Positions 29,877 to 63,977 of a stretch of 64,000 nucleotides of DNA are shown here, in pieces. Source of the stretch: Clostridia bacterium (GTDB lineage: Bacteria; Bacillota; Clostridia; Christensenellales; CAG-138); contig JAZUMK010000012.1 in the NCBI GenBank assembly GCA_045603585.1, positions 5,176 through 69,175 on the forward strand, given 5' to 3'. Position 1 is the first letter of the stretch. Each line of letters opens with the position of its first letter. Both the position numbers and the translations under genes were made by a program. The notes under the pieces were generated by a model. The model saw only the letters and a list, made by a program, of their open reading frames with translations, was not told the origin of the DNA and did not search any database.

Positions 29877-30293
29877 TTATCTGTGCAGAGGACGCATGCC
29901 CCTTACCTGCTTTGCGTATTCCACGGGAACGCTTATGCGTACCACGGCGGTATTGTGGGCATTCTTGCGCATCATCACATTTTCAACCTTACCGTCGCAT
30001 ACCTTGCAGCCCTCGTTGTCGCGGGCTTCCACCACCATGCCAACCTCAGGCAGAGGGAGATATTCGTAGGGGAAATCCACGGTGGCAATACCGGGAGCAA
30101 ATTCTTCATCCAGCAGGAAACATGCCTGACCGGGACAGGCGGCAACGCAAAGGCCGCAGCCGGTGCACTTTTCCGGAGTAAGGGCGGGGCGGGCAGTTAT
30201 ATCGTCACCGATAAATATGGCTCCGGTAGGGCAGGCGTGAGTGCAGGGATTGCAGGGAATATTCTGGGGACAATCCACCATTATTTTACGCAT
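29877..30293 (-). CDS. 4Fe-4S dicluster subunit of a dye-linked amino-acid dehydrogenase complex
   Basis: CPQNIPCNPCxxxCP and CTGCGLCVAACP, C-terminal PYEYLPLP; resembles the small subunits of archaeal proline dehydrogenase complexes. Confidence 0.75.
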   Translation of the reverse strand: MRKIMVDCPQNIPCNPCTHACPTGAIFIGDDITARPALTPEKCTGCGLCVAACPGQACFLLDEEFAPGIATVDFPYEYLPLPEVGMVVEARDNEGCKVCDGKVENVMMRKNAHNTAVVRISVPVEYAKQVRGMRPLHR

Positions 30294-30296
30294 AGA

Positions 30297-30617
30297 CTAT
30301 TCCTCCTCTTTACCTTTGCAGGAGCAGAAGGCATCCTCGGTTTCTGCAATGAGTCCCAGCTTTACGGGAGTCACGGGCAGACGGATGCTGCCGGGAAGGT
30401 ATCTGTCCACCGGCTGAGAATAATACTCGGACAGCATTCTTGCTATCATCTTGCGGCAGGTACGTCCCTGACAGAAGCCCATTCCCGCGCGGGTGCGCTT
30501 CTTTATGGAATCCAGAGAGTTTGCACCCTCTCTCATTGCCTGAAGTATCTCTTCTTTGGATACTTCTTCGCAGCGGCAAACAACTTCGCGGGGAGTCTTT
30601 ACTTCATGCTGTTCCAT
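30297..30617 (-). CDS. BFD-like [2Fe-2S] protein (SoxA/HcnB C-terminal-like)
   Basis: VCRCEEV...KKRTRAGMGFCQGRTC...RLPV; own AAGGAGG RBS. Confidence 0.85.
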   Translation of the reverse strand: MEQHEVKTPREVVCRCEEVSKEEILQAMREGANSLDSIKKRTRAGMGFCQGRTCRKMIARMLSEYYSQPVDRYLPGSIRLPVTPVKLGLIAETEDAFCSCKGKEEE

Positions 30618-31684
30618 ACGGCCTCCTTAGCAAGCCTTCTGCGTTCGCCGAAAGGACCGGTGCGCAGAGTATTGAGCCTGTTGAGTATAGTCTGGCGGGC
30701 TTCGGCATACTGGTTATCTGTAAGATAGCCCAGCCTGTATGCGGCGCAGGTGCCGGCAAGACGGCCCTCGTCAAGGGCAGTGCTGGCTTCTTCGATGCCA
30801 GCGGCATCGCCTGCGACCAGAATGCGCTCATCGCTGGTTTCAAGGTCTGCGGTGTGGGCTGGGATCACGCCGCCCAAAGGTGCGGAATTGATAAGCTTGC
30901 AGCCGCTTACGTCGGCGATTTCGATTCTGGGAGTAAGACCTACCGCAAGGGCGACCGTATCGCATTCAATGGTTTCTTCGGTGCCGGGGATGGGGCAGAA
31001 CTTTTCATCCAGCTTTGCAATGACCACACGCTCAACGCATCCGTCGCCTTCAGCCCTGAGTACGGTGTGGGAGGTGAGGACCGGTACGCCTGCCCTCTTT
31101 ACCTTGGCGGCGTGAACGGCATATCCGTTTATTCTGGGAGCGGCTTCAAGTATGCAGGCAACATCCGCGCCTGCCTGAAGCAGCTGATATGTAACAATGA
31201 GGCCAACGTTGCCGGAGCCCACAACCACAAACCTGTTGCCGGGCAGAACGTGCTGCACGTTCATGAAGGTCTGGGCTGCGCCTGCGGTGATAACGCCGGG
31301 CAGAGTGCATCCGGGGAAGCTGAGGGCGTTCTCGGAGGCGCCTGTTGCAAGTACAATGCGCTTTGCATTGAAATGCCAGCTCTGCTTTTCATCGGTGGCG
31401 GCAACGCTACCATCGGGATAAATACCCCAAACGCGGGTATTGAGGCGGGTCTCTACGCCAAGGCTTGCAGCCTCGTCCAGCAGCATCTGGCCTATGGCAA
31501 AGCCGCGGGTACCGGCATAGTGCTCCTCGGAACCGAAAAATTTATGTATCTGCTTGAACAGCTGTCCGCCGGGACGGCTGTTTTCATCCAACAGCAGCAC
31601 GCTTGCGCCGTGGCGGCGTGCCTCTATTGCAGCGCCGAGACCGGCAGGGCCTGCGCCTATGACAATTACGTCGTAGCTATTCAT
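30599..31684 (-). CDS. FAD/NAD(P) oxidoreductase (HcnB / sarcosine oxidase alpha-like)
   Basis: GAGPAG, GGQLFKQIH, LATGASE, GSGNVG, AGDAAG; start at MNSYD (31684). Confidence 0.85.
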   Translation of the reverse strand: MNSYDVIVIGAGPAGLGAAIEARRHGASVLLLDENSRPGGQLFKQIHKFFGSEEHYAGTRGFAIGQMLLDEAASLGVETRLNTRVWGIYPDGSVAATDEKQSWHFNAKRIVLATGASENALSFPGCTLPGVITAGAAQTFMNVQHVLPGNRFVVVGSGNVGLIVTYQLLQAGADVACILEAAPRINGYAVHAAKVKRAGVPVLTSHTVLRAEGDGCVERVVIAKLDEKFCPIPGTEETIECDTVALAVGLTPRIEIADVSGCKLINSAPLGGVIPAHTADLETSDERILVAGDAAGIEEASTALDEGRLAGTCAAYRLGYLTDNQYAEARQTILNRLNTLRTGPFGERRRLAKEAVWNSMK

Positions 31685-31997
31685 TGGTTTCCTCCCCGGC
31701 GCCAAGGCCTTCCTGAGTTCTGACCACCATTCCGGGCTTGGCAATGGTCATGCATGCGCGGACGTTCATAACGCCGTCTATCTCCATGATGCAGTCTGTG
31801 CACTGGCCGATGCCGCAGAAAATACCTCTGGGCTCATGGTGCTTTGCAGTGTGCCTGAAGGTCCTTATCCCATTGGCCATCAGCGCAGCCGCCACAGTTT
31901 CGCCTTCCCGCGCAGTAACCTCCCTGCCATCCATCGTAAAGGTGAATACGGGAGCTTCGGGTATGCTCAATATCGGATGTTGGGTTATCCTGTGCAT
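31677..31997 (-). CDS. [2Fe-2S] protein (HcnA / sarcosine oxidase alpha N-terminal-like)
   Basis: GETVAAAL, RGIFCGIGQCTDC, NVRAC. Confidence 0.88.
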   Translation of the reverse strand: MHRITQHPILSIPEAPVFTFTMDGREVTAREGETVAAALMANGIRTFRHTAKHHEPRGIFCGIGQCTDCIMEIDGVMNVRACMTIAKPGMVVRTQEGLGAGEETNE

Positions 31998-32137
31998 AGC
32001 GATAATACCTTCCTTTTTGTAATGTATTTAAAAAAATTTTGTATGAATCGTGCAGAGAAATGCCATTGCGCTGTTACTCAGTTTGAATTATACATGATTT
32101 TTTAGACATATACAGCCCTATACGGATAAAAACACAA

Positions 32138-32156
32138 AACTTGCACAAATGTGCTG
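32138..32156. promoter_or_regulatory. Candidate operator, copy 1
   Basis: AACTTGCACAAATGTG (32138-32153) is identical to 51666-51681; pseudo-palindrome TTGCACA-aa-TGTG. Confidence 0.6.
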
Positions 32157-32287
32157 ATGATTTTACTGTACATGTCCACCGTAAAGAGGTTAAAATGTTT
32201 ATATGAAAAGTGCGGCATATCTAAAACCGCACCATGACGTATTTCATATCTAAATACGCAAAACACATCATCAAGGAGGAAAACATT

Positions 32288-32992
32288 GTGAAGAAGTTTT
32301 TTGCTACCCTGCTGGTTCTGGTAATGGCTCTGTCCCTGGTAGCCTGCGCCGCCCCCGCCGCTGAGGAAGCCCCCGCTGTTGAGGAAGCTCCCGCTGTTGA
32401 AGAAGCCCCCGCTGAGGAAGCCGCTGTTGAAGAAGCTCCCGCAGCTGATGGCGTAAACCGCATCATCGTATGGAACACCGCTATTGCTGACCTGACCAGC
32501 AGCGAACAGCCCCGCGGCGCCGAGACCCGCGTAGCTTATGCATTCGCCGATGTAGTAGCCAAGTGCGAAGTAGCCGGCACCGAGCCCTGCCAGGTAATCG
32601 GTTCTGACGGCTATGCTGCAGACGAAATGTATGACGACCTTATGCAGAAGTACTTCACCCTGGAAGGCGAATCCGCTCCCATCGTAGTTGGCGAAGCACA
32701 GGATCCCGACTGGGCAGTTTGGGAAGTAGCTTATGTTCGCGTAGGCAGCGATGTTATGATGGCCTGCGTTAAGGACGAGTATCCCGTTGCTGACGTATTT
32801 GCCGCTGTAGGCATGGCCGAAGCTGACAGCTACGACTTCGTATGCGCCGACGGTTATGTTCACAACGTTCTTGCCAGCGAGATCGCTGAGTGCACCGTAA
32901 AGCTGATGGAGGATGGCGGTTATGATGGAACCGCTCCCGGTCTGGGCGACTACACCCTCTATGATCTGCTCTACATCCAGCCCGCTGCTTAA
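32288..32992 (+). CDS. Acidic lipoprotein with an internally duplicated xDGY module
   Basis: AAGGAGG RBS, GTG at 32288, lipobox LVAC, EEAPAV linker, two segments ADV...(GS/CA)DGY. Confidence 0.8.
   Translation: MKKFFATLLVLVMALSLVACAAPAAEEAPAVEEAPAVEEAPAEEAAVEEAPAADGVNRIIVWNTAIADLTSSEQPRGAETRVAYAFADVVAKCEVAGTEPCQVIGSDGYAADEMYDDLMQKYFTLEGESAPIVVGEAQDPDWAVWEVAYVRVGSDVMMACVKDEYPVADVFAAVGMAEADSYDFVCADGYVHNVLASEIAECTVKLMEDGGYDGTAPGLGDYTLYDLLYIQPAA
32360..32443 (+). repeat. Imperfect in-frame tandem repeat (15-18 bp units) encoding an EEAPAV linker
   Basis: GAGGAAGCCCCCGCTGTT / GAGGAAGCTCCCGCTGTT / GAAGAAGCCCCCGCT..., about 5 units. Confidence 0.8.
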
Positions 32993-33016
32993 TTATCCGC
33001 TTTAGCTAAAATCAAG

Positions 33017-33057
33017 ATTTGGCTGATGTGGCTCATGCCACATCGGCCAAATTTATT
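33017..33057 (+). terminator. Terminator after the lipoprotein gene
   Basis: ATTTGGCTGATGTGGC-tcat-GCCACATCGGCCAAAT followed by TTATT. Confidence 0.75.
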
Positions 33058-33507
33058 AATTCCACCAGCTATTATTTTTATCGAATATCTCAGGTTTCAG
33101 CTTTTCACTATTTTCGCCATGCGGAAACGCGCATGAAAAAACGCCGTTTCCCCACGTCGCGTCACCTATCCTGAAAAATACGAAAAAACACTGATAAACA
33201 GGGGTATTTCCCGCAAAACCCAACACATTGCATCAACCGAAATCAAGTTATCCGTATATCATATTCCACCAACATAAGTTTTAAGGCTGTACTGCAGCCA
33301 AGGCACTCCGCCCCCCGTCACACGCTGACATACGGGGCAGCTGATCCCGAAAATGACTGCCGCACACGCAAATTCAAGGCAGACATTATAAAATTAAACC
33401 GGCTAAAAGCAAACACCGGCCGCCTGCAAGCCAGCTTTTTTGCAGATACGGAAAAAGTAAGCGAAATAACAAATTTCAACAACATTATTGTCAACGGAGG
33501 AAAGACT

Positions 33508-34485
33508 ATGGCATTGAGCAAAGAAAGACTTCTCGGCCTGTACCGCGACATGGTTTTGATCCGCAAGTTTGAGGATTGCATCCAGGAATACGCGGCAAAC
33601 GGCACCGTTCCCGGCTTCGTGCACCTGTCCACCGGCCAGGAAGCCTGTCAGGCCGGCGTGGTACGCGCACTTCGCACCACCGACTACAAATACCCCGATC
33701 ATCGCGGACACGGCGCTATCCTGCTGTGCGGCACTGATCCCAAGCTGGTAATGGCCGAAATATTCGGCAAGGCCACCGGCGTAAACGGCGGACGCGGCGG
33801 TTCAATGCATATCCATGACTGGTCCTGCCATAATCACGGCTTCAACGGCATTCAGGGTTCCACCGTGGTTACCGCTCTGGGTACTGCTTTTGCCTCCAGA
33901 TATAAGAATAACGACGACGTATCCGTAGTCTTCATGGGCGACGGTACTCTGGGCGAAGGTACCTGCCACGAGAGCATGAACCTGGCAGCAACCTGGAAGC
34001 TCCCCGTAGTATATGCCCTCATCAACAACGGCTATGCCATCAGCACCCCCTGCTCCGTAGCTCATCCCCAGGAAGAGCTGAGGCAGTGGGCAGACGGTTA
34101 CGGCGTTCCCTCCTGGCGAATTGACGGCAACGATATCGAAGCCGTTGTGGAAGCCACCGAAAAGGCCGTAGAAATGGCCCGCAAGGGCGAAGGCCCCTCC
34201 CTGCTGGAGTTCGTTACCTACCGCTGGCAGGGTCACTTCGCAGGCGACCCCGCTGCTTACCGTCCCAAGGAAGAGATGGAATACTGGAAGAAGCGCGATC
34301 CCATCGTCCTCTGCGCCAATGTGCTTAAGGACAGGGAAGGCGTAAGCGAAGATGAGCTGAAGGCCATCGAAGCCGACGTTGACGCACAGGTTGCGGATAT
34401 GCTCAAGTTCACCCTTGAGAGCCCCTTGCCCGATGTTTCCAGCGCAACCAGCCATGTTTATGAAGGATTCAACTGGGAGGTATAA
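33508..34485 (+). CDS. TPP-dependent 2-oxoacid/acetoin dehydrogenase E1 alpha
   Basis: GFVHLSTGQEA, HRGHG, GRGGSMH, GDG...NN TPP motif, TYRxxGH. Confidence 0.92.
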   Translation: MALSKERLLGLYRDMVLIRKFEDCIQEYAANGTVPGFVHLSTGQEACQAGVVRALRTTDYKYPDHRGHGAILLCGTDPKLVMAEIFGKATGVNGGRGGSMHIHDWSCHNHGFNGIQGSTVVTALGTAFASRYKNNDDVSVVFMGDGTLGEGTCHESMNLAATWKLPVVYALINNGYAISTPCSVAHPQEELRQWADGYGVPSWRIDGNDIEAVVEATEKAVEMARKGEGPSLLEFVTYRWQGHFAGDPAAYRPKEEMEYWKKRDPIVLCANVLKDREGVSEDELKAIEADVDAQVADMLKFTLESPLPDVSSATSHVYEGFNWEV

Positions 34486-34488
34486 CCA

Positions 34489-35466
34489 ATGAGCAGAATA
34501 CTTACCTACACCAAGGCCATCAACGAGGCCATGATTCAGGAAATGGAGCGCGACGAAAACGTATTCGTGCTGGGCGAAGACGTTGCCCGCATGGGCGGTG
34601 ACTTTGGTCTTACCCAGGGCATCTATCAGCGCTGGCCCAATCGTATCTTTGATACCGCCCTGTCCGAGGCCGCTATCGTAGGCCTTGCAAACGGCGCGGC
34701 CATCGCAGGCCTCCGTCCCGTTGCCGAAATGATGTTCGCAGACTTTGCCGGCGTTGCTTTCGACCAGATCGTAAACAGCTCCGCCAAGCTGAACTTCATG
34801 TTCCAGGAAGAGGCAAACTGCCCCGTTACCATCCGCATGCCCCAGGGCGCCGGCATCCGCTGCGCTTATCATCACAGCGCCTGCGTTGAGAGCTGGTTCC
34901 TCAACACCCCCGGTCTTGTAATCGTATCCCCCGCCAATCCCTACGAGGCAAAGGGCCTGCTGATCTCCGCAATCCGCAGCGATGACCCCGTGCTCTTCCT
35001 TGAGCACAAGATGCTGCTGAATGCCCGCGGCGAAGTACCCGAAGAGCCCTACGCTCTCCCCCTGGGCAAAGGCGTAATAGAAAAAGAAGGCAAGGATGTT
35101 ACCATCGTTGCCCTGCAGATAACCGTAGGCATGGCTCTCAAGGCTGCCAAGGCTCTGGAAAAGGAAGGCATCAACGCAGAGGTAATCAACCTGCGTACCA
35201 TCAAGCCCTACGATGAGCAGCTCATCGCCGAATCCGTTGCCAAGACCGGCCGTCTGGTAATCGCTCAGGAAGGCCCCAAGGTTGGCGGCTGGGCATCCGA
35301 GATCAGCGCCATGGTAACCGAAAAGTACTTCGAGTATCTGGCTGCTCCCGTAGAGAGAGTGACCTGCCTCGATATCCCCGTATCCTTCGCTCCCACTCTG
35401 GAGGATTACTACATGCTGAGCCCTGAAGATATCGTCTCCGCGGTCAAGAAGACCGTAGCATTCTAA
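34489..35466 (+). CDS. 2-oxoacid/acetoin dehydrogenase E1 beta
   Basis: LGEDV, DTALSE, EMMFADF, HHS, FLEHK, VAKTGR. Confidence 0.92.
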   Translation: MSRILTYTKAINEAMIQEMERDENVFVLGEDVARMGGDFGLTQGIYQRWPNRIFDTALSEAAIVGLANGAAIAGLRPVAEMMFADFAGVAFDQIVNSSAKLNFMFQEEANCPVTIRMPQGAGIRCAYHHSACVESWFLNTPGLVIVSPANPYEAKGLLISAIRSDDPVLFLEHKMLLNARGEVPEEPYALPLGKGVIEKEGKDVTIVALQITVGMALKAAKALEKEGINAEVINLRTIKPYDEQLIAESVAKTGRLVIAQEGPKVGGWASEISAMVTEKYFEYLAAPVERVTCLDIPVSFAPTLEDYYMLSPEDIVSAVKKTVAF

Positions 35467-35480
35467 AGGAGGCTTTGTCT

Positions 35481-37127
35481 ATGGCTGTTATTGAAGTAAT
35501 GCCCAAATTCGGGCTCTCTATGGAGGAAGGCATAGTAGGCGAATGGCTGGTAAAGGAAGGCGCAACCGTTAAGCGCGGCGATGCCCTTGCCGTTATCGAA
35601 GCCGAAAAGCTGGTCAACAATGCCGTAGCCTCCCGTGACGGCGTAGTGCTCAAGTGCTACCTTGCAGCAGGCGAATCCGCTCCCTGCGGCTCTCCCCTCT
35701 GCGTCATAGGCGATGCAGGCGAAGCAGTTCCCGATGCAGCAGGCGAAGCTCCCGCCAAGGAAGAAGCCCCCGCTGCAGCCCCTGCCGCCGCTCCCGCTGC
35801 TCCTGCCGCTTCCGACAGCAATGCCACCATCGAAGTAATGCCCAAGTTCGGCCTTTCCATGGAAGAAGGCATAGTTGGCGAATGGCTGGTAAAGGAAGGC
35901 GCAGCCGTTAAGCGCGGCGACGCTCTTGCAGTTATCGAAGCTGAAAAGCTCACCAATAACGCTGTTGCTTCCCGCGACGGCATAGTGCTCAAGCTGTACC
36001 TTGCAGAAGGCGACTCTGCTCCCTGCGGCTCTCCCCTTTGCGCCATAGGCGAAGAGGGTGACGTTGCTCCCGCAGCTCCCGGCGAAGCCCCCGCTGCCGA
36101 AGCAGCTCCCGCACCCGCAGCTGCTCCTGCCGCTGCCCCCGCTCCCGTTGTTCAGGCCGCCATGACCCCCCGCGCTGCCGCAGCTGCCGCCGCTCACGGC
36201 GTAAACGTTGCAGGCGTTAAGGGCACCGGCAAGGACGGCGAGATCACCGTTGACGATGTACGCTTTGCAGCATCTCACCCCGCTGCAGCTCCTGCCGTTC
36301 CCGCAGGTCCCGTAAGCATCACTCCCAGAGCAAAGATGATGGCTGCCAAGCTGGGCCTCAGCTATGACCACATCGTAGGCACCGGCCTGCTGGGCATGGT
36401 AACCGTTGCCGACCTTAAGGCACACGGCAAGGCCATCCAGCTGCAGGATGAGATCATCCCCATGAACGGCATACAGCGCGCGACCGCAGCCGCCATGAAG
36501 GCCAGCCTTGCAAATTCCGCTCAGGCAGTGGTAACCATCGAAGAGTCCTTCGCTCCCATGGTAAAGGCATACAAGCGCCTCAAGCCCGTTTATGCCGAGA
36601 AGGGCCTCAAGCTCAGCTACACCGCAATGATCATAAAGGCCGTTGCCCTTGCCATCAAGGACAGGCCGGACATCCGCATGCAGTACATGGATGCATCCCA
36701 CTTCCGCCTCCCCGCCGCCATCAATATCGGCGTTGCCGTGGATACTCCCAAGGGACTGGTCGTGCCTGTCATCCGCAATGCTGACGTAAAAACTCTTGGC
36801 GAAATCTGCAAGGACCTTGCGGAGCTTTCCGCAAAGGCAAACGCAGGCCGCCTTACCGCCGATGATATGGGCAACGCAGTGACCACCGTTACCAATCTGG
36901 CAATGGCCAACGTCACCGCCTTCACCCCCATCCTCAATCCCCCCGAGTCCACTATTCTCGGCGTTTGCAAGCTGAGGGAAGTACCCGTAGTCAAGAACGG
37001 CGGCATATTCATCGAGCCCGTTATGAACCTCTGTCTCACCTATGACCACAGGGTAATCAACGGCGCACCTGCAGGACGCTTCACCACCGAAGTTGCCAAC
37101 CTGCTCAATACCATTGACTGGCAGTAA
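35481..37127 (+). CDS. Dihydrolipoamide acyltransferase E2 (two lipoyl and two E3-binding domains)
   Basis: Duplicated MPKFGLSMEEG...EAEKL, two PR..GTG..G binding domains, catalytic DHRVING. Confidence 0.92.
   Translation: MAVIEVMPKFGLSMEEGIVGEWLVKEGATVKRGDALAVIEAEKLVNNAVASRDGVVLKCYLAAGESAPCGSPLCVIGDAGEAVPDAAGEAPAKEEAPAAAPAAAPAAPAASDSNATIEVMPKFGLSMEEGIVGEWLVKEGAAVKRGDALAVIEAEKLTNNAVASRDGIVLKLYLAEGDSAPCGSPLCAIGEEGDVAPAAPGEAPAAEAAPAPAAAPAAAPAPVVQAAMTPRAAAAAAAHGVNVAGVKGTGKDGEITVDDVRFAASHPAAAPAVPAGPVSITPRAKMMAAKLGLSYDHIVGTGLLGMVTVADLKAHGKAIQLQDEIIPMNGIQRATAAAMKASLANSAQAVVTIEESFAPMVKAYKRLKPVYAEKGLKLSYTAMIIKAVALAIKDRPDIRMQYMDASHFRLPAAINIGVAVDTPKGLVVPVIRNADVKTLGEICKDLAELSAKANAGRLTADDMGNAVTTVTNLAMANVTAFTPILNPPESTILGVCKLREVPVVKNGGIFIEPVMNLCLTYDHRVINGAPAGRFTTEVANLLNTIDWQ
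35493..36061 (+). repeat. Near-identical intragenic duplication of the lipoyl domain (339-bp offset)
   Basis: GAAGTAATGCCCAA(A/G)TTCGG at 35493 and 35832; the two protein copies differ at only a few residues. Confidence 0.85.
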
Positions 37128-37144
37128 TTCATGGAGGATCTGCA

Positions 37145-55513: not shown

Positions 55514-55549
55514 TTAATGCAACCGCATATTTCTGTGCGGTTGCATTAA
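55514..55549. other. Strong intergenic hairpin
   Basis: TTAATGCAACCGCA-tatttctg-TGCGGTTGCATTAA, with no T tract on the plus strand. Confidence 0.7.
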
Positions 55550-55591
55550 ACGTATCAGGATAATTTATAAAAAGTATTGGAGGTACTTATT

Positions 55592-56578
55592 TTGGCGCAG
55601 CTTTATACTGTAGCATTGTTCAAGCCTCTCGGCATGACAATCAAGGGCGCAGCAGCATGCTATGTGTTTGCTCTGGCCTATGTGGTCATACTGGTAGCGC
55701 TGGGTCTCTGGTGGAACCGCAATCAATATTCCGCCGTTGTTGAAGAAGGCTGGAGCAGCCGCGTTATTGCTCGAATCGCAATATTCACCGCTCTTTCCGC
55801 CGCCGGCGGCCTTATTACCCTCCCCGGCGCGACCAGCATCCGCTTTGACTCCCTTTCCGGCTATTTCGCAACCCTGATGTTCGGCTGGCAGATAGGCGCC
55901 ATAGTAGCTGCCTTCGGCGCATTCTTCTCCGAGCTTATGTCCGGTTTCTCCGGCTGGGCTCCCCTCGCGCCCTATTACATGATAACCATGGCATTTGCAG
56001 TTACCTGCTTTGGCGCAGCCACCAAGAAGTGGGGCCGCACCGCCGGTATCATCTGCGGTACTCTGGCAAACACCATGTGCGTTGTTCCCTGGCCTCTCAT
56101 GATGGGCTGGGGCATGCTGGCCACCACCTTTGTTCAGCAGGTTGTAGGTTCCTATGCAAACTGCCTGTTGGCAGCCATCGCGTTCTCCATGATTTCCGCC
56201 GCTCAGATGCGCCGTCGCTATGAAGAGCCCGTGGACGAAGAAGAGCTCAGGATAGTTAACGCCATGCTGGAAGAGGATGCACGCCTGCATCCCGGCAAGG
56301 CCAGGAAGTACGAGGAAGCCGGCAAATCCGGCAGCAAGGGCAAGAAGGGCTCCATCATGCTGTTCCTGGGCATTTCCCTCGTAATCCTTCAGGTAATCAT
56401 GCTTATCAACACCAAGGTGCGCACCAAGAAGTTCCCCGATCTCACCGTACAGGATATGCAGGATCTCATCAACTTCGTGCAGGTCATGTGGATCGGCGTT
56501 CTCGGCATTGTATTCGCCATTGCCGGTGCAGTAAAGCGCATTAAGAGCAGCCGCAGCAGTGCAAAGGAGGTTCAGTAA
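55592..56578 (+). CDS. ECF transporter S component (CblT-like core with N- and C-terminal extensions)
   Basis: Core IAIFTALSAAGGLITLP..SIRFDSLSGYFATL.FG..GAIVAA; TTG at 55592 after GGAGG; lies upstream of ECF A-A' and T genes. Confidence 0.75.
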   Translation: MAQLYTVALFKPLGMTIKGAAACYVFALAYVVILVALGLWWNRNQYSAVVEEGWSSRVIARIAIFTALSAAGGLITLPGATSIRFDSLSGYFATLMFGWQIGAIVAAFGAFFSELMSGFSGWAPLAPYYMITMAFAVTCFGAATKKWGRTAGIICGTLANTMCVVPWPLMMGWGMLATTFVQQVVGSYANCLLAAIAFSMISAAQMRRRYEEPVDEEELRIVNAMLEEDARLHPGKARKYEEAGKSGSKGKKGSIMLFLGISLVILQVIMLINTKVRTKKFPDLTVQDMQDLINFVQVMWIGVLGIVFAIAGAVKRIKSSRSSAKEVQ

Positions 56579-58291: not shown

Positions 58292-58293
58292 TC

Positions 58294-59109
58294 ATGCTTA
58301 TAGATTATCGCAAGCTTGATACCTGGGTACACGCACTCAACCCCAAATTCAGCATGCTGTGCGTGCTGCTGGTCATAATTGCCTCCATAGTCTGGACCAA
58401 TGTTATTCATCTGGCCATACTTACCCTTGCCCTCTACCTTATCGGCGTAAGCTGCAAGGTGCCCTGGAAGCAGATTTCCTGGTTCCTGAAGTTCGCTCTG
58501 GCTGCCTCTTTGCTGATTCTGGTAATTCAGGCATTCACCATCGACCCTTCTCTGATCAAAAACGAAGCCATCAGCAAGGTAGTTCTTTTCCACGTTCTGC
58601 CCAACGGCAAGGGCGCGGTAAAGCTGGCCGGTGTGCTGTACGGCATAGCCGCAAGCCTTAAGATTTACATGGTAGTATTTGCCATCTGCATTCTGGGCTT
58701 CACCGTTCCCCCCACAGAGTTCATTCAGATGCTGGGCAAGCTGCCCTTCGCATCCAAGCAGATAAGCTTCATCTTCTCCACCGCTTGGCGCTTTATCCCC
58801 ATCATTCAGGGTCAGGCAATCAACCTTATGAACGCCCAGAAGACCCGCGGCATGGATATGGACAAGGGCAAGCTGCTGGAAAAGCTCAAGAAGATGATGA
58901 GCATCGTTGCTCCTCTGCTTTCCAATGCGATCGAAGTTGGTTCCGACATCGCTCTGACCATGGAAGCCCGCGGCTTTGGCTCCACCAAAAAGGGCAGCTT
59001 TGTTCGCCCCAACACCATGACCGCAAAGGATCGTATCGGCTGCGTAATAGTTGTTCTGCTTATCGCCGCCATGATCTACGGCACCACTCTGGGCTTCGGG
59101 GTGATGTAA
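58294..59109 (+). CDS. ECF transporter T component
   Basis: HALNP, AQKTRG, MEARGF. Confidence 0.9.
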   Translation: MLIDYRKLDTWVHALNPKFSMLCVLLVIIASIVWTNVIHLAILTLALYLIGVSCKVPWKQISWFLKFALAASLLILVIQAFTIDPSLIKNEAISKVVLFHVLPNGKGAVKLAGVLYGIAASLKIYMVVFAICILGFTVPPTEFIQMLGKLPFASKQISFIFSTAWRFIPIIQGQAINLMNAQKTRGMDMDKGKLLEKLKKMMSIVAPLLSNAIEVGSDIALTMEARGFGSTKKGSFVRPNTMTAKDRIGCVIVVLLIAAMIYGTTLGFGVM

Positions 59110-59110
59110 C

Positions 59111-60007
59111 TTGGCACGCATATTCGTAATGGGCGCGGCGGCTATGGATACCATAGTCAAGGTGGAGGAATTTCCCGTCCTGGACTCCATAGTCTCCCCC
59201 CTTGAAGTAGTACGCACCCCCGGCGGCAGCACCGCAAACGTGGCAGTAGGCCTTTCCCGGCTGGGAAACAGCTGCGAATTCTTAGGCTGCTGCGGCGAGG
59301 ATACCGACGGTAGGCTGCTTAAGGATTCCTTCATTGACGAAGGAGTTGGCATTGCAGGGCTGCTGTCTCAGCCTGACTGGCGCACTCCCGGCGCATTTAT
59401 CGCGGTAAATCACGCAGGCGATCGCGTTATGTACTCCTTGGGCGGCGATGCGCTGTACACCGAGCCCTCCCAGCTCAATGGCATTGATATGTCCTCTGCC
59501 GATGCGATGTACATCGGCGAGGCATTCTCCTCAGTTGCCGTTGAAGCGGCCGCAAGGATACATGCCGCAGGCGGAAAGGTATTCTTCGGACCCGGCGGAG
59601 TTATGTGTTCCTTCGGTCTTGAGGAACTTGCCCCCATTATCGCCTGCTGCGATGTGCTGTTTTTAAGCCGCAGCGAGCTGGCTCAGCTTACGGAAGGCGA
59701 TATAGACAGCGGCGCAGAAAAGCTTCTTGCCATAGGTGCAAAGGCTCTGGTCGTCACCGACGGCAGCAAGGGCGCACACCGCTTCACCGCCGATGAGCAC
59801 ATCTCGGTTTCCGCCCTTAAGGTCACACCGGTGGATACAACAGGCGCCGGCGATGCATTTACCTCCGCCTTTATCCACTCCACCCTCAGCGGAATGGCTC
59901 CCCAGGCCGCTCTGCAATTTGCCTGCAAGGCAGCCGCCTATGCCATAACAAAAACCGGCGGCCGCTGTTCCCCCACAATAGACCAAATTAACGATTGGAG
60001 GATTTAA
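59111..60007 (+). CDS. PfkB family carbohydrate/nucleoside kinase
   Basis: PGGSTANVA, VTDGSKG, VDTTGAGDAF. Confidence 0.9.
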   Translation: MARIFVMGAAAMDTIVKVEEFPVLDSIVSPLEVVRTPGGSTANVAVGLSRLGNSCEFLGCCGEDTDGRLLKDSFIDEGVGIAGLLSQPDWRTPGAFIAVNHAGDRVMYSLGGDALYTEPSQLNGIDMSSADAMYIGEAFSSVAVEAAARIHAAGGKVFFGPGGVMCSFGLEELAPIIACCDVLFLSRSELAQLTEGDIDSGAEKLLAIGAKALVVTDGSKGAHRFTADEHISVSALKVTPVDTTGAGDAFTSAFIHSTLSGMAPQAALQFACKAAAYAITKTGGRCSPTIDQINDWRI

Positions 60008-60011
60008 TTTA

Positions 60012-61199
60012 ATGAATACCCAGCTTTTTGAAGAAGCCGTATCCCTGTGCCGCGCTCTTATTGCCGCTCCCAGCGATTCCGGTCATGAGGACGGCGTAGT
60101 TAATGCCCTTTCCGAGTATTTCCGCAGCAACGGCGTAGAAGATATCGTAGTTGACCGTTTCGGCAACTTCATCGCCACCATCCACGGCAGCAAGCCCGGC
60201 AAGACCGTTCTCTTTGACGGCCATATGGATACCGTTCCCGTAACCGATGCTGACCAGTGGATCCATCCTCCCTATGCAGGCGAAATCGCAGACGGCAAAA
60301 TGTACGGCCGCGGCACCTCTGATATGAAGTGCGCTCTGGGCTGCATGGCAGTTGCCGCCGTGGAATATTTCCGCGCAACCAAGGGCAACTTTGCAGGCAA
60401 CATCGCCGTAGCCGGCGTTGTTCACGAGGAGTGCTTTGAAGGCGTAGCAGCCCGCGAAATCAGCGCCCGCGTACATCCCGATCTGGTAGTTATCGGCGAA
60501 GCTTCCGAGTGCAACCTGAAGATCGGTCAGCGCGGCCGCGGCGAGATCGTCGTGGAAACCTTCGGCAAGAGCGCCCACTCCGCCAACCCCGATCAGGGCA
60601 TCAATGCCGTATACCATATGTGCAAGCTCATCGAAATGATCAAGGAAATCCAGCCCCCCATGTCCGATGTACTTGGTCCCGGCATCCTTGAGCTTACCGA
60701 TATCAAGTCCACTCCCTATCCCGGAGCTTCCGTTGTTCCTTCCCACTGCCGCGCCACCTATGACAGGCGTCTGCTGGTAGGCGAGACCAAGGAAAGCGTT
60801 CTCGCTCCCATTCAGGAAGTTATCGACAAGGCTGCCGCCATCATTCCCGGCTTCAGCGCAAAGGTATCCCTTGCCACCGATACCCAGGAATGCTTCACCG
60901 GCAACTGGATCGAGGGCGAAAGGTTCTTCCCCGGCTGGGCATTTGACGAAAATGCCGATTTCGTTCAGCTGGTACTTGCCGGCCTTAAGGACGGCGGCGT
61001 AGAGCCCCAGATCACCCACTACAACTTCTGCACCAACGGCAGCCATTATGCAGGCGAAGCCGGTATCCCCACCATCGGCTTTGGTCCCTCCACCGAAAAG
61101 CTGGCTCACACCAGGAACGAGTACATCGAGCTTGCTCAGATGGAAGCCGTTCTTTCCGGCTATCTCGGCATGATCGGCCGCGTTTGCCCTCAGGACTAA
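60012..61199 (+). CDS. M20 metallo-hydrolase, YgeY-like
   Basis: DGHMDTV, GRGTSDMK, HEE, IGE, TNGSHYAGEAGIPTIGFGP..AH. Confidence 0.85.
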   Translation: MNTQLFEEAVSLCRALIAAPSDSGHEDGVVNALSEYFRSNGVEDIVVDRFGNFIATIHGSKPGKTVLFDGHMDTVPVTDADQWIHPPYAGEIADGKMYGRGTSDMKCALGCMAVAAVEYFRATKGNFAGNIAVAGVVHEECFEGVAAREISARVHPDLVVIGEASECNLKIGQRGRGEIVVETFGKSAHSANPDQGINAVYHMCKLIEMIKEIQPPMSDVLGPGILELTDIKSTPYPGASVVPSHCRATYDRRLLVGETKESVLAPIQEVIDKAAAIIPGFSAKVSLATDTQECFTGNWIEGERFFPGWAFDENADFVQLVLAGLKDGGVEPQITHYNFCTNGSHYAGEAGIPTIGFGPSTEKLAHTRNEYIELAQMEAVLSGYLGMIGRVCPQD

Positions 61200-61227
61200 T
61201 CAGAATCCCCTTACAGGAGATTAACTT

Positions 61228-61701
61228 ATGCAGGAATTCCACATCACGGTAAATGGTATGGAGCATACCATATGTGCCGAACCCAATACAATATTGCTGA
61301 ACGTACTCAGGAATGACCTGGGACTTACCGGCGCAAAGTGCGGCTGCGGCACCGGCGACTGCGGTGCCTGCACCGTGATAATGGACGGCGAAGCTGTTCG
61401 CAGCTGCATTGTTCCCATGCGCAATGCCGACGGCAAGAGCATTCTCACCATCGAAGGCCTTGCAGACGGTCCCAGGCTGCATCCCCTGCAGCAGGCCTTT
61501 GTGGATGCCGGCGCTATCCAGTGCGGCTTCTGCACCCCCGGCATGATACTGGCCGCCAAGGCGCTGCTTGACAAGAACCCCTCCCCCACCGAAGAGGAAA
61601 TTCGTCAGGCCATCGCTCCCAACCTTTGCCGCTGCACCGGCTATGCAAGAATAGTTGCGGCGGTTCAGCTGGCGGCAGAAAGAATGGAGGCTGCAAAATG
61701 A
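61228..61701 (+). CDS. XDH-family 2x[2Fe-2S] subunit 2
   Basis: GCGTGDCGACTV, QCGFCTPG, NLCRCTGY. Confidence 0.95.
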   Translation: MQEFHITVNGMEHTICAEPNTILLNVLRNDLGLTGAKCGCGTGDCGACTVIMDGEAVRSCIVPMRNADGKSILTIEGLADGPRLHPLQQAFVDAGAIQCGFCTPGMILAAKALLDKNPSPTEEEIRQAIAPNLCRCTGYARIVAAVQLAAERMEAAK

Positions 61702-63977
61702 TTCAGAAGCCTGTAAACGGAATAGTCGGCGTTCCCCATCCCATCGATGATGCAGCCCTCAAGGCCACCGGTCAGCTTCGCTATGTGGATGATATCACTA
61801 TGCCCGGCATGCTGCATGCAAAGGTGCTCTTCAGCCCCCATCCCCATGCAAAAATAACCCGCCTTGATGCTTCAAAGGCGCTGGCCCTGCCCGGCGTAAG
61901 GGGCGTTGTAAGCTATCTCAACACCCCCGACGTCTGCTTCAACAGCAGCGGCGAAACCCTCAACTTTTTCAAGACCGAGCGCGTATTTGACAGCGTAGTC
62001 CGCTACGTTGGCGACAGGGTCGCAGCAGTTGCTGCGGATACCCCCGAAATCGCCGCCAAGGCCCTTCGCCTTATAGAGGTGGACTACGAGCCCCTGCCTG
62101 CAAACTTCGACCCCGAAAAAGGCGCTCAGGATGACGCATACGTCATTCTGGACAGAGGCGGCCTGCAGAAGGGCAATATTATGGAAACCGTATGCCAGCA
62201 GTGCGGCGATGTGGATAAGGCCATGGAGGAAGCCCCCCATGTATTTACCGACACATTCACCGTACCCCCCATTCACCACGGCGCAATAGAGCCCCACGGC
62301 TGCATTGCGGATTACGATGCAAGGGGCAAGCTGACGGTTTATACTCCTTCTCAGGACAGCTTTGCTGTACGCGCAAACCTTAGCCGTATATTCTCCATGC
62401 CCATGAGCAAGGTACGCGTCAGCGTGCCTGCCGTTGGCGGCGCATTCGGCGGCAAGGTCGATATGATCATAGAGCCCGTTGCGGCAGCCCTGGCAATTCA
62501 GTGCGGCAGGCCTGTAAAGCTGATTTACAACCGCAGGGAAGATATCGCTTCCTCCCGTACCCGCCATGCCATGAAGATAACCATGCGCACCGCATTCAAC
62601 GACGAGGGCGAGATACTTGCCGAGGATATGAAGGTATACTGCAACGCAGGCGCCTATGCCTCCGGCACCAGCAATATCGTATGGGCAATGTGCGGCAAGT
62701 TCTTTAAGGTACATCGCTGCACCAATATGCGCTTTACCGGTTATCCCGTTATCACCAACACCACTCTGGGCGGCCCCATGCGCGGCTTCGGCAGTCCCCA
62801 GTGCTTCTTTGCCCAGCAGCGTCAGCTCAATCGCATTGCCAACTTCCTTGGCATGGATATGCTGGAGCTTCAGCGCAAAAACCTTACCCTGCCCGATGGC
62901 GTTGACTATCGCTTCAACCAGCCCCACGGCAACGCAAGGCCCCTTGACTGCCTTAACAGGGCAGCGGAGCTTATCAACTACGAAGCCTGCGTACAGGAGC
63001 AGAAAGCCACCGCTTCCGACCGCTTCCGCATAGGCGTTGGCATAGGCGTTGGCGCCCACGGCAACGGCATGTTCGGCATCCGTGCGGATGATATCACCGG
63101 CATAGTTCTCAAAATGAACGACGACGGCAGCTGCGTTCTTTACACCGGCTCCCACGAAATGGGCAATGCTTCCATCACCACCCAGAAGCAAATGGTTGCC
63201 GAAACCCTCGGCGTTTCCATGGATATGGTATCCGCAGTAAGCGCAGATACCGAACTTGCGCCCTTCCAGCTGGCAGACTATTCCAGCCGCGGTACCTTCG
63301 TATCCGGCCGTGCAGCCCTGCTGGCAGCCGAAGCGATGCGGGATAAGCTGGCCCTTTACGCCGCAAAGCTGCTGGACGCCAATGCAGAGGACTTTACCTT
63401 TGCAAACGGATACGCCACCACCGCTGACGGCAAGCAGGCCACCCTTGAACAGATCGTAATGTACGCCCGCTGCACCTGCTCCACCGAGCTTATAGTGGAG
63501 CGCACCACCGCCGCCAATGCCGCCGTTATCAGCTATGGCGCACACATCGTCAAAGTAAAGGTAGACACCGAAACCGGAAACGTTGAGCTGCTGGACTACG
63601 CCGCAGTTCACGATCTGGGCTATGCCATCAACCCCCTGTCCGTTCGCGGCCAGATCGAAGGCGCAGTACAGATGGGCGCAGGCTATGCCCTCTCTGAAGG
63701 AGTACAGATCGACGAAAACGGCAAGGTAAAGAACACCACCCTCAGAACCTACCGTATGCTCAGGGCTACGGATATGCCCCGCAGCCTGCATGTTGACTGG
63801 ATTCAGGAAGGCGAAGAAGCCGGTCCCTTCGGCGCAAAGAGCATTGGCGAATGTTCCGTTGTACCCAGCGTTGCAGCCATTTCCAACGCTGTATCCAATG
63901 CGATCGGCGTGGAATGCAACCACCTGCCCCTTGACTCCAAGCGTATCACCGAGCTTTTGGCGAACAAGGCAGAATAA
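61698..63977 (+). CDS. Xanthine dehydrogenase / aldehyde oxidoreductase-family Mo subunit 2
   Basis: KATGQLRY, HGAIEP, GGAFGGK, PMRGFG, HEMG, SSRGT, KSIGEC; ATG at 61698 overlaps the upstream gene. Confidence 0.92.
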   Translation: MIQKPVNGIVGVPHPIDDAALKATGQLRYVDDITMPGMLHAKVLFSPHPHAKITRLDASKALALPGVRGVVSYLNTPDVCFNSSGETLNFFKTERVFDSVVRYVGDRVAAVAADTPEIAAKALRLIEVDYEPLPANFDPEKGAQDDAYVILDRGGLQKGNIMETVCQQCGDVDKAMEEAPHVFTDTFTVPPIHHGAIEPHGCIADYDARGKLTVYTPSQDSFAVRANLSRIFSMPMSKVRVSVPAVGGAFGGKVDMIIEPVAAALAIQCGRPVKLIYNRREDIASSRTRHAMKITMRTAFNDEGEILAEDMKVYCNAGAYASGTSNIVWAMCGKFFKVHRCTNMRFTGYPVITNTTLGGPMRGFGSPQCFFAQQRQLNRIANFLGMDMLELQRKNLTLPDGVDYRFNQPHGNARPLDCLNRAAELINYEACVQEQKATASDRFRIGVGIGVGAHGNGMFGIRADDITGIVLKMNDDGSCVLYTGSHEMGNASITTQKQMVAETLGVSMDMVSAVSADTELAPFQLADYSSRGTFVSGRAALLAAEAMRDKLALYAAKLLDANAEDFTFANGYATTADGKQATLEQIVMYARCTCSTELIVERTTAANAAVISYGAHIVKVKVDTETGNVELLDYAAVHDLGYAINPLSVRGQIEGAVQMGAGYALSEGVQIDENGKVKNTTLRTYRMLRATDMPRSLHVDWIQEGEEAGPFGAKSIGECSVVPSVAAISNAVSNAIGVECNHLPLDSKRITELLANKAE

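Follow-up and report, generated by a model that had tools for sequence, protein, structure and literature searches.

The closest described relatives of the locus reported here are the gene clusters for reductive urate breakdown. In that pathway, XdhD is followed by YgfK or UacX, SsnA, HyuA, YgeW or UacY, YgeY and YgeX (PMC12507026 and bioRxiv 10.1101/2025.04.24.650524, both in part); the Escherichia coli cluster comprises xdhD-ygfM, ygfK, ssnA, hyuA, ygeW, yqeA, ygeY and ygeX, and the Clostridioides difficile variant carries UacX and UacY (same sources, in part). An SsnA orthologue (IPR017700/TIGR03314) is used as the marker of the urate cluster in PMC12507026 (in part). The stretch analysed here, called the window, is a 64,000-nucleotide part of a Clostridia bacterium genome (G000), namely positions 5176-69175 of contig C12 (JAZUMK010000012.1) in a 2.04-Mb assembly of 63 contigs that is 90.7% complete. 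Between positions 29877 and 63977, the window carries an island of 30 genes, several of which belong to urate-pathway families, and this island continues past the window end with genes resembling the formyltransferase/hydrolase complex (Fhc). What sets it apart is the presence of a complete Fhc set and of several methenyl-tetrahydromethanopterin cyclohydrolase (Mch) homologues in genomes without detectable genes for tetrahydromethanopterin (H4MPT) or methanofuran synthesis, of which no prior description was found in the literature searched. As a whole, the island may tentatively be regarded, with a confidence that falls a little short of even, as one conserved catabolic supercluster of gut Oscillospiraceae dedicated to an undescribed breakdown of a ribosyl- or ribityl-bearing fused-pyrimidine heterocycle.

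Genes were called from six-frame open reading frames (ORFs) with Pfam and NCBIfam scans, and scores are given as bits against the NCBIfam or Pfam cut-off. Like the urate cluster, the island pairs an SsnA-like amidohydrolase with a flavin reductase built like PydA/PreA and has XDH-family Mo enzymes, a hydantoinase of the HyuA family and an M20 hydrolase of the YgeY family; its genome also shares the selenium trait (SelD with an in-frame TGA). Among these urate-type enzymes, only the dihydropyrimidinase/hydantoinase (50232-51701, minus strand; TIGR02033, 395.3 vs. 393.25, a marginal score) and the YgeY-family deacylase/decarbamoylase (60012-61199, plus strand; NF009555, 446.6 vs. 321) pass their family cut-offs. 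The SsnA-like amidohydrolase, AH1 (38418-39878, plus strand; Pfam Amidohydro_1), probably starts near 38553, its orthologues aligning over about 437-441 aa, and is not an SsnA orthologue by NCBIfam, with 241.9 vs. 455.5 bits for TIGR03314 and 259 vs. 444 for NF005540. It is adjoined by the PreA/PydA-like flavin mononucleotide (FMN) reductase (39891-41102, plus strand), which combines a DHO_dh domain (PF01180) with a C-terminal pair of [4Fe-4S] clusters (Fer4) and reaches 155.8 vs. 335 bits with the PreA model NF006183. Unlike the urate cluster, the island and its continuation have no YgeW/UacY, carbamate kinase or YgeX, and they add two Mch homologues, FhcABCD, a glutamate ligase, a DAO complex, a pyruvate dehydrogenase (PDH)-like complex and two importers.

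The true SsnA of the genome lies on contig C23 (36731-38047, 578.2 bits), side by side with YgfK (1317.6 bits) and an XDH; YgeW (780 bits) is found on C2, adjoining a YgeY-like gene, and carbamate kinase on C57. YgeX was not found in the 90.7% complete genome, where the best score was 21.4 bits for a cut-off of 532. Since AH1 falls below the SsnA cut-off and the true SsnA, YgfK, XDH, YgeW and carbamate kinase are located on other contigs, the island constitutes a second, paralogous system. This agrees with an earlier sequence-only reading of the window, which had proposed a conserved N-heterocycle catabolic island related to the anaerobic urate cluster yet distinct from it and had noted the lack of YgeW, YgeX, YgfK and carbamate kinase, all four being indeed absent from the window according to the family scans. 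Its idea that the PreA-like reductase stands in for YgfK has a published precedent in UacX of C. difficile (PMC12507026, in part), to which the protein is likened by described architecture. As for the Mch homologues, they had been supposed to take over the roles of YgeW, YgeX and carbamate kinase; instead, they accompany an Ftr/FhcABCD-like set and a MyfB-like ligase outside the window. The case that had been named as fatal to the whole proposal, a plain urate cluster with its missing genes just beyond the window, does not apply: the Fhc genes follow there, and the urate genes are on other contigs. The main texts of both urate papers mention neither methanopterin nor formyltransferase, nor a cyclohydrolase as pathway enzyme, and a literature search, with the supplementary neighbourhood tables of these two papers (PMC12507026 and bioRxiv 10.1101/2025.04.24.650524), where such variants might be listed, outside its scope, yielded no paper in which Mch, Ftr or Fhc is connected with the catabolism of purines, pterins or flavins, or with Oscillospiraceae.

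The second described system of relevance is the H4MPT/methylofuran one-carbon (C1) module of methylotrophs (PMC6926001, PMC8141765 and PMC5020050, all in part), whose genes are already known in Firmicutes (PMC5020050, in part). Like this module, the island possesses all five protein types and a RimK-type ligase gene adjoining the Fhc genes, and it has kept the FhcA metal ligands, the FhcD Glu252 equivalent and the Mch Arg/Glu pair. Unlike in the module, the FhcB of the island is shortened to 275 aa, the Mch genes are situated outside the cassette, in 2-8 copies and inside catabolic operons, and RFAP synthase, Mpt_N and MfnB were not detected in the island carriers (0/8 each).

The Fhc genes are all on the minus strand of locus L001 (C12:68000-87999), for which the window coordinate is extrapolated as the L001 position plus 62824. 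The Ftr/FhcD gene (L001:5047-5940) scores 361.6 vs. 292.6, has FhcD 6s6y_D as its best solved relative and keeps the equivalent of Glu252. The FhcA-like metallohydrolase, of the FwdA/FhcA type (L001:2766-4223), stays just below its cut-off (TIGR03121, 385.1 vs. 392.75); its best alignment is to FhcA of 6s6y and shows each of the six metal ligands in place (HxH, Lys, His, His and Asp, as named in PMC6926001, in part). The FhcC-like GXGXG protein (L001:2078-2764) reaches 32.9 vs. 32.5 with PF01493 and 74 vs. 130.65 with the FwdC/FhcC model TIGR03122. Concerning the remaining component (L001:4220-5047, 275 aa), no Pfam family and no solved relative by sequence were found, and its 27 relatives among 5.8 billion proteins are all unnamed. 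Its AF2 model (pLDDT 88.8) matches FwdB (5t5i_B; Foldseek E 6.9e-13, TM 0.73) and, with E 4e-11, the FhcB subunit in the Fhc complex from Methylorubrum (6s6y), and its profile matches the 425-aa protein that precedes FhcA in a canonical Bacillota cassette (hhalign 95.9%, E 5e-9); on the strength of both the fold and the profile match, it is identified as a shortened FhcB-like scaffold. Three runs of complex prediction for FhcA and this protein gave 0.00, 0.85 and 0.00 and were counted neither for nor against binding.

The glutamate ligase (L001:1206-2072) scores 205.7 vs. 143.4 with TIGR00768 and 244.2 vs. 350 with the MptN model NF040720. It was compared with that model and with the cassette ligases, its likeness to MyfB being one of description; in methylotrophs, the RimK-like MyfB makes the polyglutamate of the Fhc-bound carrier (PMC8141765, in part). 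With respect to the columns that are invariant in the cassette versions, Ftr keeps 51/65, the ligase 50/72, FhcA 88/147 and FhcC 23/60. Beside the MyfB-like ligase, these genes make up a complete FhcABCD-like set, whose assembly into a complex is predicted. The long minus-strand ORFs L001:6068-7477 and 4220-5209, as well as a 387-aa start for the ligase, were discarded as wrong on the basis of synteny and of equal-length orthologues.

The genes required to make the cofactors of such a complex were searched for in eight window-family carriers, three of which are single-contig genomes. None of the eight had RFAP synthase (TIGR00144), Mpt_N (Mtd, methylene-H4MPT dehydrogenase) or the furan synthase MfnB, the positive controls, i.e. 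cassette-bearing Bacillota, giving 4/4, 5/6 and 3/4, respectively. With regard to membership of the H4MPT/methanofuran pathway, Mch and FhcABCD are present, and RFAP synthase, Mpt_N and MfnB were not found. Ftr itself is no rarity in the phylum: an even sample of 401 genomes contains 17 that carry it (11 above the cut-off). In other Bacillota families (loci L064-L071), a compact FhcA-Ftr-FhcC-Mch-RimK cassette was observed; in the one that was annotated (L066 of G397, C91:41576-61575), the neighbouring genes encode a pterin-binding/DUF6513 protein, DUF447, a GHMP-type RFAP synthase, Mpt_N (Mtd), an ATP-grasp protein, a CitG-like protein and MfnB, a gene set that reads as the ordinary H4MPT/methylofuran pathway.

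Two Mch homologues are encoded in the window, both on the plus strand. Mch1 (41107-42072; PF02289, 166.9 bits) is divergent and remains below the equivalog cut-off (TIGR03120, 144 vs. 228.8), and Mch2 (48095-49063; PF02289, 281 bits) exceeds it (242 vs. 228.8). Carrier genomes have between two and eight copies, with six in G032 and eight in G062. A quick LG+G4 tree of 35 sequences without archaeal rows, rooted on the six cassette copies as assumed outgroup, placed the 29 window-family copies and the cassette Mch on opposite sides of a branch supported at 99% SH-aLRT and resolved at least five supported paralogue clades. The catalytic Arg/Glu pair (aligned with Arg183 and Glu186 of Methanopyrus kandleri Mch, the catalytic role of Glu186 being indicated by E186Q entries) is kept in all 29 family copies. 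Of 58 columns invariant in the canonical cassette Mch, 19 are kept in the Mch1 clade, 26 in the Mch2 clade, and 39, 36 and 26 in the others, each clade having its own fixed replacements at formerly invariant columns.

The extra Mch copies of G062 (L048-L055) and G032 (L056-L059) each lie in a cluster of their own with a BMP-type ATP-binding cassette (ABC) importer. At three of the eight G062 Mch loci, the gene is beside PDH-like E1/E2 genes. An FMN_red flavoprotein is found next to Mch in three of the annotated G062 clusters, and RibD_C in one, so that a reductase adjoining Mch recurs (PreA-like with Mch1 in the island, FMN_red with Mch in the three clusters). One G062 cluster (L054) is a separate paralogous set composed of an XDH2-like enzyme, Mch, DAO, SoxA-like pieces and an amidohydrolase. 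A half-length second Mch-like ORF was noticed after the full one at L050 (10575-11273) and L055 (10520-11236). Ftr was present in 12 of the 13 window-family carriers checked; in the 95% complete genome G083, which has two Mch paralogues, no Ftr was found. Many divergent Mch copies with a single conserved Fhc set fit ring-opening enzymes of differing specificity that feed a common formyl removal.

At the level of gene order, neighbouring genes overlap or leave no more than about 76 nt between them, both in the run of 14 plus-strand genes from 33508 to 50224 and in the ten further ones from 51832 to 63977. AH2 and Mch2 share 8 nt, Mch1 starts at 41107 after the PreA-like end at 41102, and the DAO gene starts 3 nt past Mch2. 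Synteny of the block extends to six more genomes or contigs of this family (L003/G134, L004, G215, G211, G214 and G207). A species-genome scan of the Mch1 region gave 96% identity in a 'Clostridia bacterium' metagenome-assembled genome and 50% in an 'uncultured Oscillospiraceae' one, both with the same gene order. In total, an Mch1 homologue occurs in 16/240 genomes of the family, G000 included, and in 6/50 genera; within the genus of the window, it was found in two of the eight species searched (G000 and G134). In four genomes of genus g46, three of them single contigs, the whole series from the Fer4 gene through XDH2, Fhc, DeoC, SorC and the sugar module is present at 45-88% protein identity, the range over which gene order is kept across at least five genera. 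Gene order is full in G215 and G207, and subject to module losses in G211 and G214. Part of the block recurs in G062 (L048), and in G032 and G020 Ftr lies within about 20-30 kb of the Mch1 orthologue.

Housekeeping genes (HAD, ZIP, GMP synthase, MatE and CutC) occupy the region upstream of about 29.8 kb, where synteny is not kept. To the right, the island extends at least 4.8 kb past the window end with the Fhc genes, and synteny with a sugar module continues for about 17 kb. The core island thus measures about 39 kb, from 29.9 kb of the window to about 4.8 kb past its end, plus the syntenic sugar module. Compared with the sequence-only reading, every gene class was recovered by Pfam and NCBIfam where it had been placed, the count being 30 genes and not 29; the left border near 29.8 kb stands, and the right one is an artefact of the window, which cuts the island. 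The clustering claimed there is no chance arrangement, its order recurring in the six genomes or contigs listed above, and the gene set proved to be kept together in relatives when synteny was compared. A regulator, for which an inspection past 64 kb had been suggested, does exist there, of the SorC type, and the place where ygeW and ygeX were to be sought is taken by the Fhc genes. The G+C content is 0.55-0.60 in the island (window positions 30001-48000) vs. 0.45-0.54 in the upstream flank (1-30000); together with the patchy occurrence of Mch1 within the genus, this contrast is compatible with a block acquired from a higher-G+C relative.

What the genes give directly is the set of enzyme families, and the chemical steps that follow are all proposed. 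The predicted substrate is N-heterocyclic and imported, contains a fused ring of uracil or xanthine type and probably bears a ribosyl or ribityl group as its side chain. It would be taken up by the BMP-type ABC and energy-coupling factor (ECF) systems, deaminated by AH2 and adjusted in its oxo pattern by the Mo-dependent XDH-type enzymes. A flavin-dependent dearomatisation coupled to hydrolysis by AH1 would come next, following the YgfK/UacX-SsnA precedent (PMC12507026, in part). The Mch paralogues would then hydrolyse a non-aromatic cyclic amidine, at an imidazoline-type C-H carbon such as purine C8, to an N-formyl compound, which is the same chemistry as the conversion of methenyl- to N5-formyl-H4MPT. 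FhcD would move the formyl group to a polyglutamylated amine carrier on the Fhc-like complex, and FhcA would free formate, for which precedents exist (PMC6926001 and PMC8141765, both in part). Hydantoinase and YgeY would take off ureido groups, the DAO complex with its four electron-transfer subunits would oxidise the remaining amine or amino acid to a 2-oxoacid, and the PDH-like complex would decarboxylate the latter oxidatively to an acyl-CoA. Methanogen-type enzymes would act here without H4MPT made by the cell. As to its origin, it is conceivable, though held with distinct reserve, that gut Oscillospiraceae took up an Mch-FhcABCD-MyfB cassette, lost the synthesis of H4MPT and methanofuran and turned the enzymes onto catabolic substrates, with an Mch radiation opening the cyclic amidines of reduced heterocycles of purine or pteridine type and an Fhc complex with a new polyglutamylated carrier releasing their N-formyl groups as formate.

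Several points weigh against this supercluster and its route. Every chemical step is deduced, and substrate, intermediates and cofactor are read from the genes alone. The conservative Ftr (51/65 columns) fits salvaged cofactors, with a pterin-type donor and a furan-type acceptor, equally well as a new donor. A missing hidden Markov model match is no proof that a cofactor is absent, another biosynthetic route or uptake through the ECF importer being possible. Mch is metal-free and natively attacks a cationic amidinium, so that its reactivity with reduced purines or pteridines is questionable. A simple deformylase could in principle replace Fhc, which leaves the reason for a carrier-based complex unexplained. 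The Mch tree is limited by its assumed outgroup and the lack of archaeal rows. Moreover, the losses in G211 and G214 indicate that the island is modular and may serve more than one pathway, and the binding protein of the importer is nearer to a riboflavin binder than to the purine-nucleoside binder PnrA, which weakens a purine reading.

The substrate clues are divided. On the purine side are the XDH1 pocket, AH2, the four paralogues of urate-pathway enzymes, a ribokinase-like kinase and the DeoC/SorC pair. XDH1 consists of a Mo subunit (51832-54153), a FAD subunit (54163-55038) and a 2x[2Fe-2S] subunit (55039-55500), all on the plus strand; it keeps the equivalents of Glu802, Arg880 and Glu1261 and has Tyr at 914 and 1009 (bovine/rat numbering), i.e. 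the pocket of a xanthine dehydrogenase, Glu802 and Arg880 being presumably the substrate-pocket residues and Glu1261 the catalytic one. AH2 (46792-48102, plus strand), of the TRZ/ATZ, 5'-deoxyadenosine or MTA-deaminase type, is nearest to NCBIfam models of adenosine-analogue deaminases, with best scores of 318, 299 and 283 bits that are all below cut-off. XDH2, made of a [2Fe-2S] subunit (61228-61701, plus strand) and a Mo subunit (61626, or about 61700, to 63977, plus strand), lacks a FAD subunit and has Val, Ala and Glu at the Glu802, Arg880 and Glu1261 positions, which departs from the xanthine dehydrogenase pocket; its best solved relative is 4-hydroxybenzoyl-CoA reductase (1rm6). With this pocket, this likeness and no FAD subunit, XDH2 may act reductively or on a different ring. 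Both XDH1 and XDH2 are under every NCBIfam XDH cut-off. A purine nucleoside or oxopurine is accordingly considered as a plausible substrate, at rather less than an even chance.

The same island logic could also apply to a pteridine- or flavin-type substrate (a pterin, lumazine, ribityl-lumazine, riboflavin, or a piece of folate or methanopterin, e.g. a formyl- or methenyl-pterin), with Mch and Ftr acting near their ancestral substrate; we rate this explanation as possible, although on the unlikely side. It draws on the BMP-type binding protein (42091-43179, plus strand), whose best solved relative is the riboflavin binder TP0298/RfuA (4iil, 123 bits; PnrA, 41 bits). The four residues named as discriminatory in TP0298, Tyr27, Asn82, Tyr157 and Trp189 (PMC3573665, in part), correspond to Phe, Thr, Tyr and Trp, with only two of the four identical, and a Thr variant also occurs in a clade suspected of riboflavin binding by the authors of that paper (in part). 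Like the spirochete importer RfuABCD (PMC3573665, in part), the system has a BMP-fold binder, a double ATPase (43221-44789) and two permeases (44770-45855 and 45855-46772, all plus strand), and it keeps the stacking Tyr157 and Trp189; unlike it, it scores only about 123 bits, shows Tyr27 to Phe, Asn82 to Thr and Ser24 to Asn replacements, belongs to a catabolic operon and has no FMN riboswitch that could be found. The long S component of the ECF importer (55577-56578), which precedes a fused A-A' ATPase (56579-58291) and a T component (58294-59109, all plus strand), had no NCBIfam match and no solved relative, and matched a riboflavin-type S model weakly (26.5 vs. 26.7 bits). No RNA family, the FMN riboswitch included, passed the Rfam gathering threshold in the window and L001, which speaks against the mere salvage of a vitamin. 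For this reason, and because the genes lie in a catabolic operon, vitamin uptake as the sole function of the BMP and ECF systems was rejected. The G062 Mch clusters with RibD_C and FMN_red beside BMP importers speak for a pteridine or flavin as well.

XDH enzymes are known to oxidise pterins too. A further hint comes from the lipoprotein that heads the operon (32234-32992, plus strand; signal peptide with lipobox, no Pfam family), in which an Ala/Glu/Pro-rich repeat linker is followed by a conserved C-terminal domain of about 180 aa. Orthologue comparison identified the plus-strand frame as the conserved one, and its 36 relatives, all unnamed or 'hypothetical', were found only in islands of this kind. 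In an all-against-all structural search with its AF2 model (pLDDT 78.6), the best fold matches were SUOX-fold Mo-pterin domains (SorT and SoxCD, both Z 6.2) and PruR with neopterin (7rkb; Z 6.2, root-mean-square deviation 2.8 over 98 aa). Foldseek gave no match at E <= 0.001 (best E 0.1-0.4), and the best Atlas score of 0.83 is a lead only; these weak hints agree with the fold matches, but a Z below 8 and E values of 0.1-0.4 are in the range that the tool rates as common. The first half of the C-terminal domain may thus weakly resemble the SUOX/PruR pterin-binding fold, and the lipoprotein could be a surface receptor for the substrate. Against a pteridine or flavin stand the adenosine-analogue deaminases nearest to AH2, the paralogy of four enzymes to those of the urate pathway, and the scarcity of such compounds as energy sources, at odds with the presence of a PDH-like complex. 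Methylated purine nucleosides, pterins and benzimidazole ribosides, the candidates of the sequence-only reading, are all conceivable substrates, with some support gained by pteridine- or flavin-like ligands; a pteridine, lumazine or flavin type as such is judged a somewhat less probable substrate than the purine type.

There may also be no single pathway, the island being instead a mosaic of independent operons (purine/pyrimidine ring, Mch/DAO/Mo-enzyme, PDH, formate-releasing and sugar modules) that are co-inherited or transferred as one block, which we deem unlikely. Module losses are the first argument in its favour: G211 has neither the BMP nor the ECF importer and no PfkB, and in G214 (L040-L043) the AH1, PreA-like, XDH1 and ECF genes are missing from the island, the BMP importer is absent and about 82 codons are left of YgeY, with Mch1, AH2-Mch2-DAO, XDH2 and the Fhc genes retained intact. 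The separate XDH2-like/Mch/DAO/SoxA-like/amidohydrolase set of G062 (L054), the Fhc-Mch-RimK cassette that stands alone in other families, the syntenic sugar module without obvious chemical link to the rest, and the G+C contrast, which fits block import, point the same way. On the other hand, the order preserved across genera at the identities reported above, the tight packing of genes of different 'modules' in the same transcription units and the proximity of Mch to PDH-like E1/E2 genes in G062 are difficult to account for by a mosaic.

Less likely still is a true H4MPT/methanofuran-dependent C1 oxidation running on salvaged cofactors, e.g. from gut methanogens through the ECF system, with the RimK-like ligase adding glutamates for retention and the C1 unit coming, for instance, from an N-methyl group through the sarcosine-oxidase-like DAO. 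Ftr, FhcA and the ligase are near-canonical by their invariant columns, Mch2 passes the NCBIfam equivalog cut-off, the ECF importer has no assigned specificity, the DAO and SoxA-like subunits resemble sarcosine oxidase, and the carriers come from gut-type samples. However, with Mpt_N in none of the eight carriers, formaldehyde-level C1 cannot reach methenyl by the known route (Fae was not searched for), and a single cofactor-bound substrate would hardly call for two to eight divergent Mch copies in each genome. Besides, G083 has Mch paralogues and no Ftr that was found, G211 and G214 keep Mch and Fhc without ECF genes in the island, and no GCV_T or other folate-binding domain was reported by the Pfam scan of the SoxA-like pieces. 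That the module itself runs on H4MPT and methanofuran which the bacteria obtain from gut methanogens is, in our opinion, improbable. Finally, a plain case of reductive urate (2,8-dioxopurine) or uracil degradation, with the genes that are lacking placed immediately past the window border, suggested by the homologues of XDH, SsnA, UacX/PreA, HyuA and YgeY, is very improbable given the AH1 scores (241.9 vs. 455.5), the true SsnA-YgfK-XDH on C23 and YgeW on C2, the Fhc genes in place of ygeW and ygeX past the window (YgeX at best 21 vs. 532 bits in the genome) and a set of cyclohydrolase, methanopterin and formyltransferase functions that the main texts of the urate papers leave unmentioned.

The single catabolic supercluster was also compared with other known systems. 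Reductive pyrimidine degradation employs PydA/PreA, a dihydropyrimidinase and a decarbamoylase, and the island does hold such a trio (PreA-like reductase, TIGR02033 dihydropyrimidinase and M20 decarbamoylase), but its members do not stand together, with Mo hydroxylase and Mch genes in between, a PreT-type partner is lacking, and the reductase, at 155.8 vs. 335, is far under the PreA cut-off. In archaeal riboflavin synthesis, GTP cyclohydrolase III and the formamide hydrolase ArfB open the purine imidazole to a 5-formamidopyrimidine and then deformylate it to formate. The proposed chemistry is alike, whereas the protein families are unrelated and the order proposed for the island would be reduction first, then metal-free Mch-type hydrolysis and carrier-mediated deformylation. 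Nicotinate fermentation, which requires a B12 mutase and genes of the hydroxymethylglutarate pathway, was rejected, as none of these was among the families found.

Multi-subunit amine dehydrogenases include heterotetrameric sarcosine oxidase, HcnABC, opine oxidases and archaeal proline dehydrogenase. Like them, the island combines a DAO-family catalytic subunit with Fer2_4, Pyr_redox_2 and BFD-type modules; the comparison was computed with the soxA/soxB and ThiO models. The catalytic subunit is a ThiO/SoxB-like FAD amine dehydrogenase (49067-50224, plus strand; ThiO, 130 vs. 250.8). Four minus-strand genes recognised by Pfam and syntenic in 4/4 g46 genomes encode a Fer4 dicluster protein (29877-30293), a BFD-[2Fe-2S]/SoxA-A3 protein (30297-30617), a Pyr_redox_2 flavoprotein (30599-31744) and a Fer2_4 protein (31677-31997). 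The small redox subunits gave soxA subfamily matches of 154.5 and 42.8 bits, far under the NCBIfam cut-off. Unlike in the known enzymes, the SoxA-like part is split into three small proteins accompanied by a Fer4 protein. The four subunits resemble a split N-terminal half of SoxA, HcnA/B or OoxA, and are presumed to be the electron-transfer partners of the DAO enzyme.

As for the other plus-strand genes of the window, the PDH-like complex is composed of E1alpha (33508-34485; NCBIfam 330.7 vs. 393.85), E1beta (34489-35466; 344 vs. 321), E2 with two lipoyl domains (35475-37127; best 253 vs. 722) and E3 (37145-38539; 529.6 vs. 408.8), so that E1beta and E3 reach the PDH equivalog cut-offs, with E1alpha and E2 under theirs. 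Within the E2 gene, at window positions 35776-36114, the contigs from two RNA-library runs leave out 288-301 nt, and the E2 orthologues align as two separate segments; E2 relatives seem to differ by one lipoyl-domain repeat. A PfkB-family ribokinase-like kinase (59111-60007; TIGR02152, 143 vs. 299.65) lies between the ECF and YgeY genes. Beyond the Fhc set, the island continues on the plus strand with a DeoC/LacD-family aldolase (L001:6203-6943) and the SorC-type regulator (L001:6971-7948). The sugar-type module (L001:7945-17999) contains a Zn-ADH, a DAGK-like kinase, a CUT1 ABC system, a xylose-isomerase-like TIM barrel and an ADP-ribosylglycohydrolase, as well as a GlpA-like DAO+BFD protein and a Pyr_redox_2+DUF1667 protein, and is syntenic in 4/4 g46 genomes.

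Elsewhere in the genome, selD was located on C12 as well, some 2.9 kb ahead of the window (locus L002, C12:1391-2323, minus strand; 396.5 vs. 125 bits). It carries one in-frame TGA, presumably the selenocysteine form, and gives the genome the selenium trait typical of anaerobic purine users. A third XDH-type cluster (C63, 16.6-27.1 kb, and C63:47173-48501) includes two amidohydrolases, a dihydropyrimidinase-like gene and XDH L, FAD and FeS subunits; this XDH has Gln and Lys at the Glu802 and Arg880 positions, and a YgfK-like stretch with an internal TAA was also observed.

A survey of sequencing runs yielded 20 rows, belonging to 11 studies, in which the stretch occurs whole or in part, five of them with at least half of its words; those that are labelled are metagenomes of gut, bovine or wildlife origin. 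Contigs of the metatranscriptome runs X18 and X20 cover 27/30 and 24/30 bins of window positions 33500-53499 at 90-99% likeness, which is a hint of transcription at most, as such libraries may hold DNA and contigs give no expression level.

The anaerobic breakdown of purines and urate by gut bacteria was solved only in 2025 and bears on host urate balance. If the island works as proposed, abundant gut Clostridia would possess a second route of different chemistry, whose C1 product is formate instead of carbamate, and Mch, Ftr and Fhc, now taken as signs of a methanogenic or methylotrophic metabolism, could work outside H4MPT metabolism. Should the novel reading be true, it would represent a new anaerobic N-heterocycle route and the first catabolic, cofactor-independent use of 'methanogenesis' enzymes. 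Since Mch2 and Ftr pass the NCBIfam cut-offs, they would be named H4MPT enzymes, and annotations and metabolic models would then need to be changed. The question of the cofactor (no carrier, a new carrier or cross-domain salvage) is directly testable thanks to the existence of single-contig carrier genomes (G211, G214 and G215). If the substrate were ribityl-lumazine or a flavin, the island might, speculatively, have a bearing on the turnover of vitamin B2 and of ligands of mucosal-associated invariant T (MAIT) cells in the gut.

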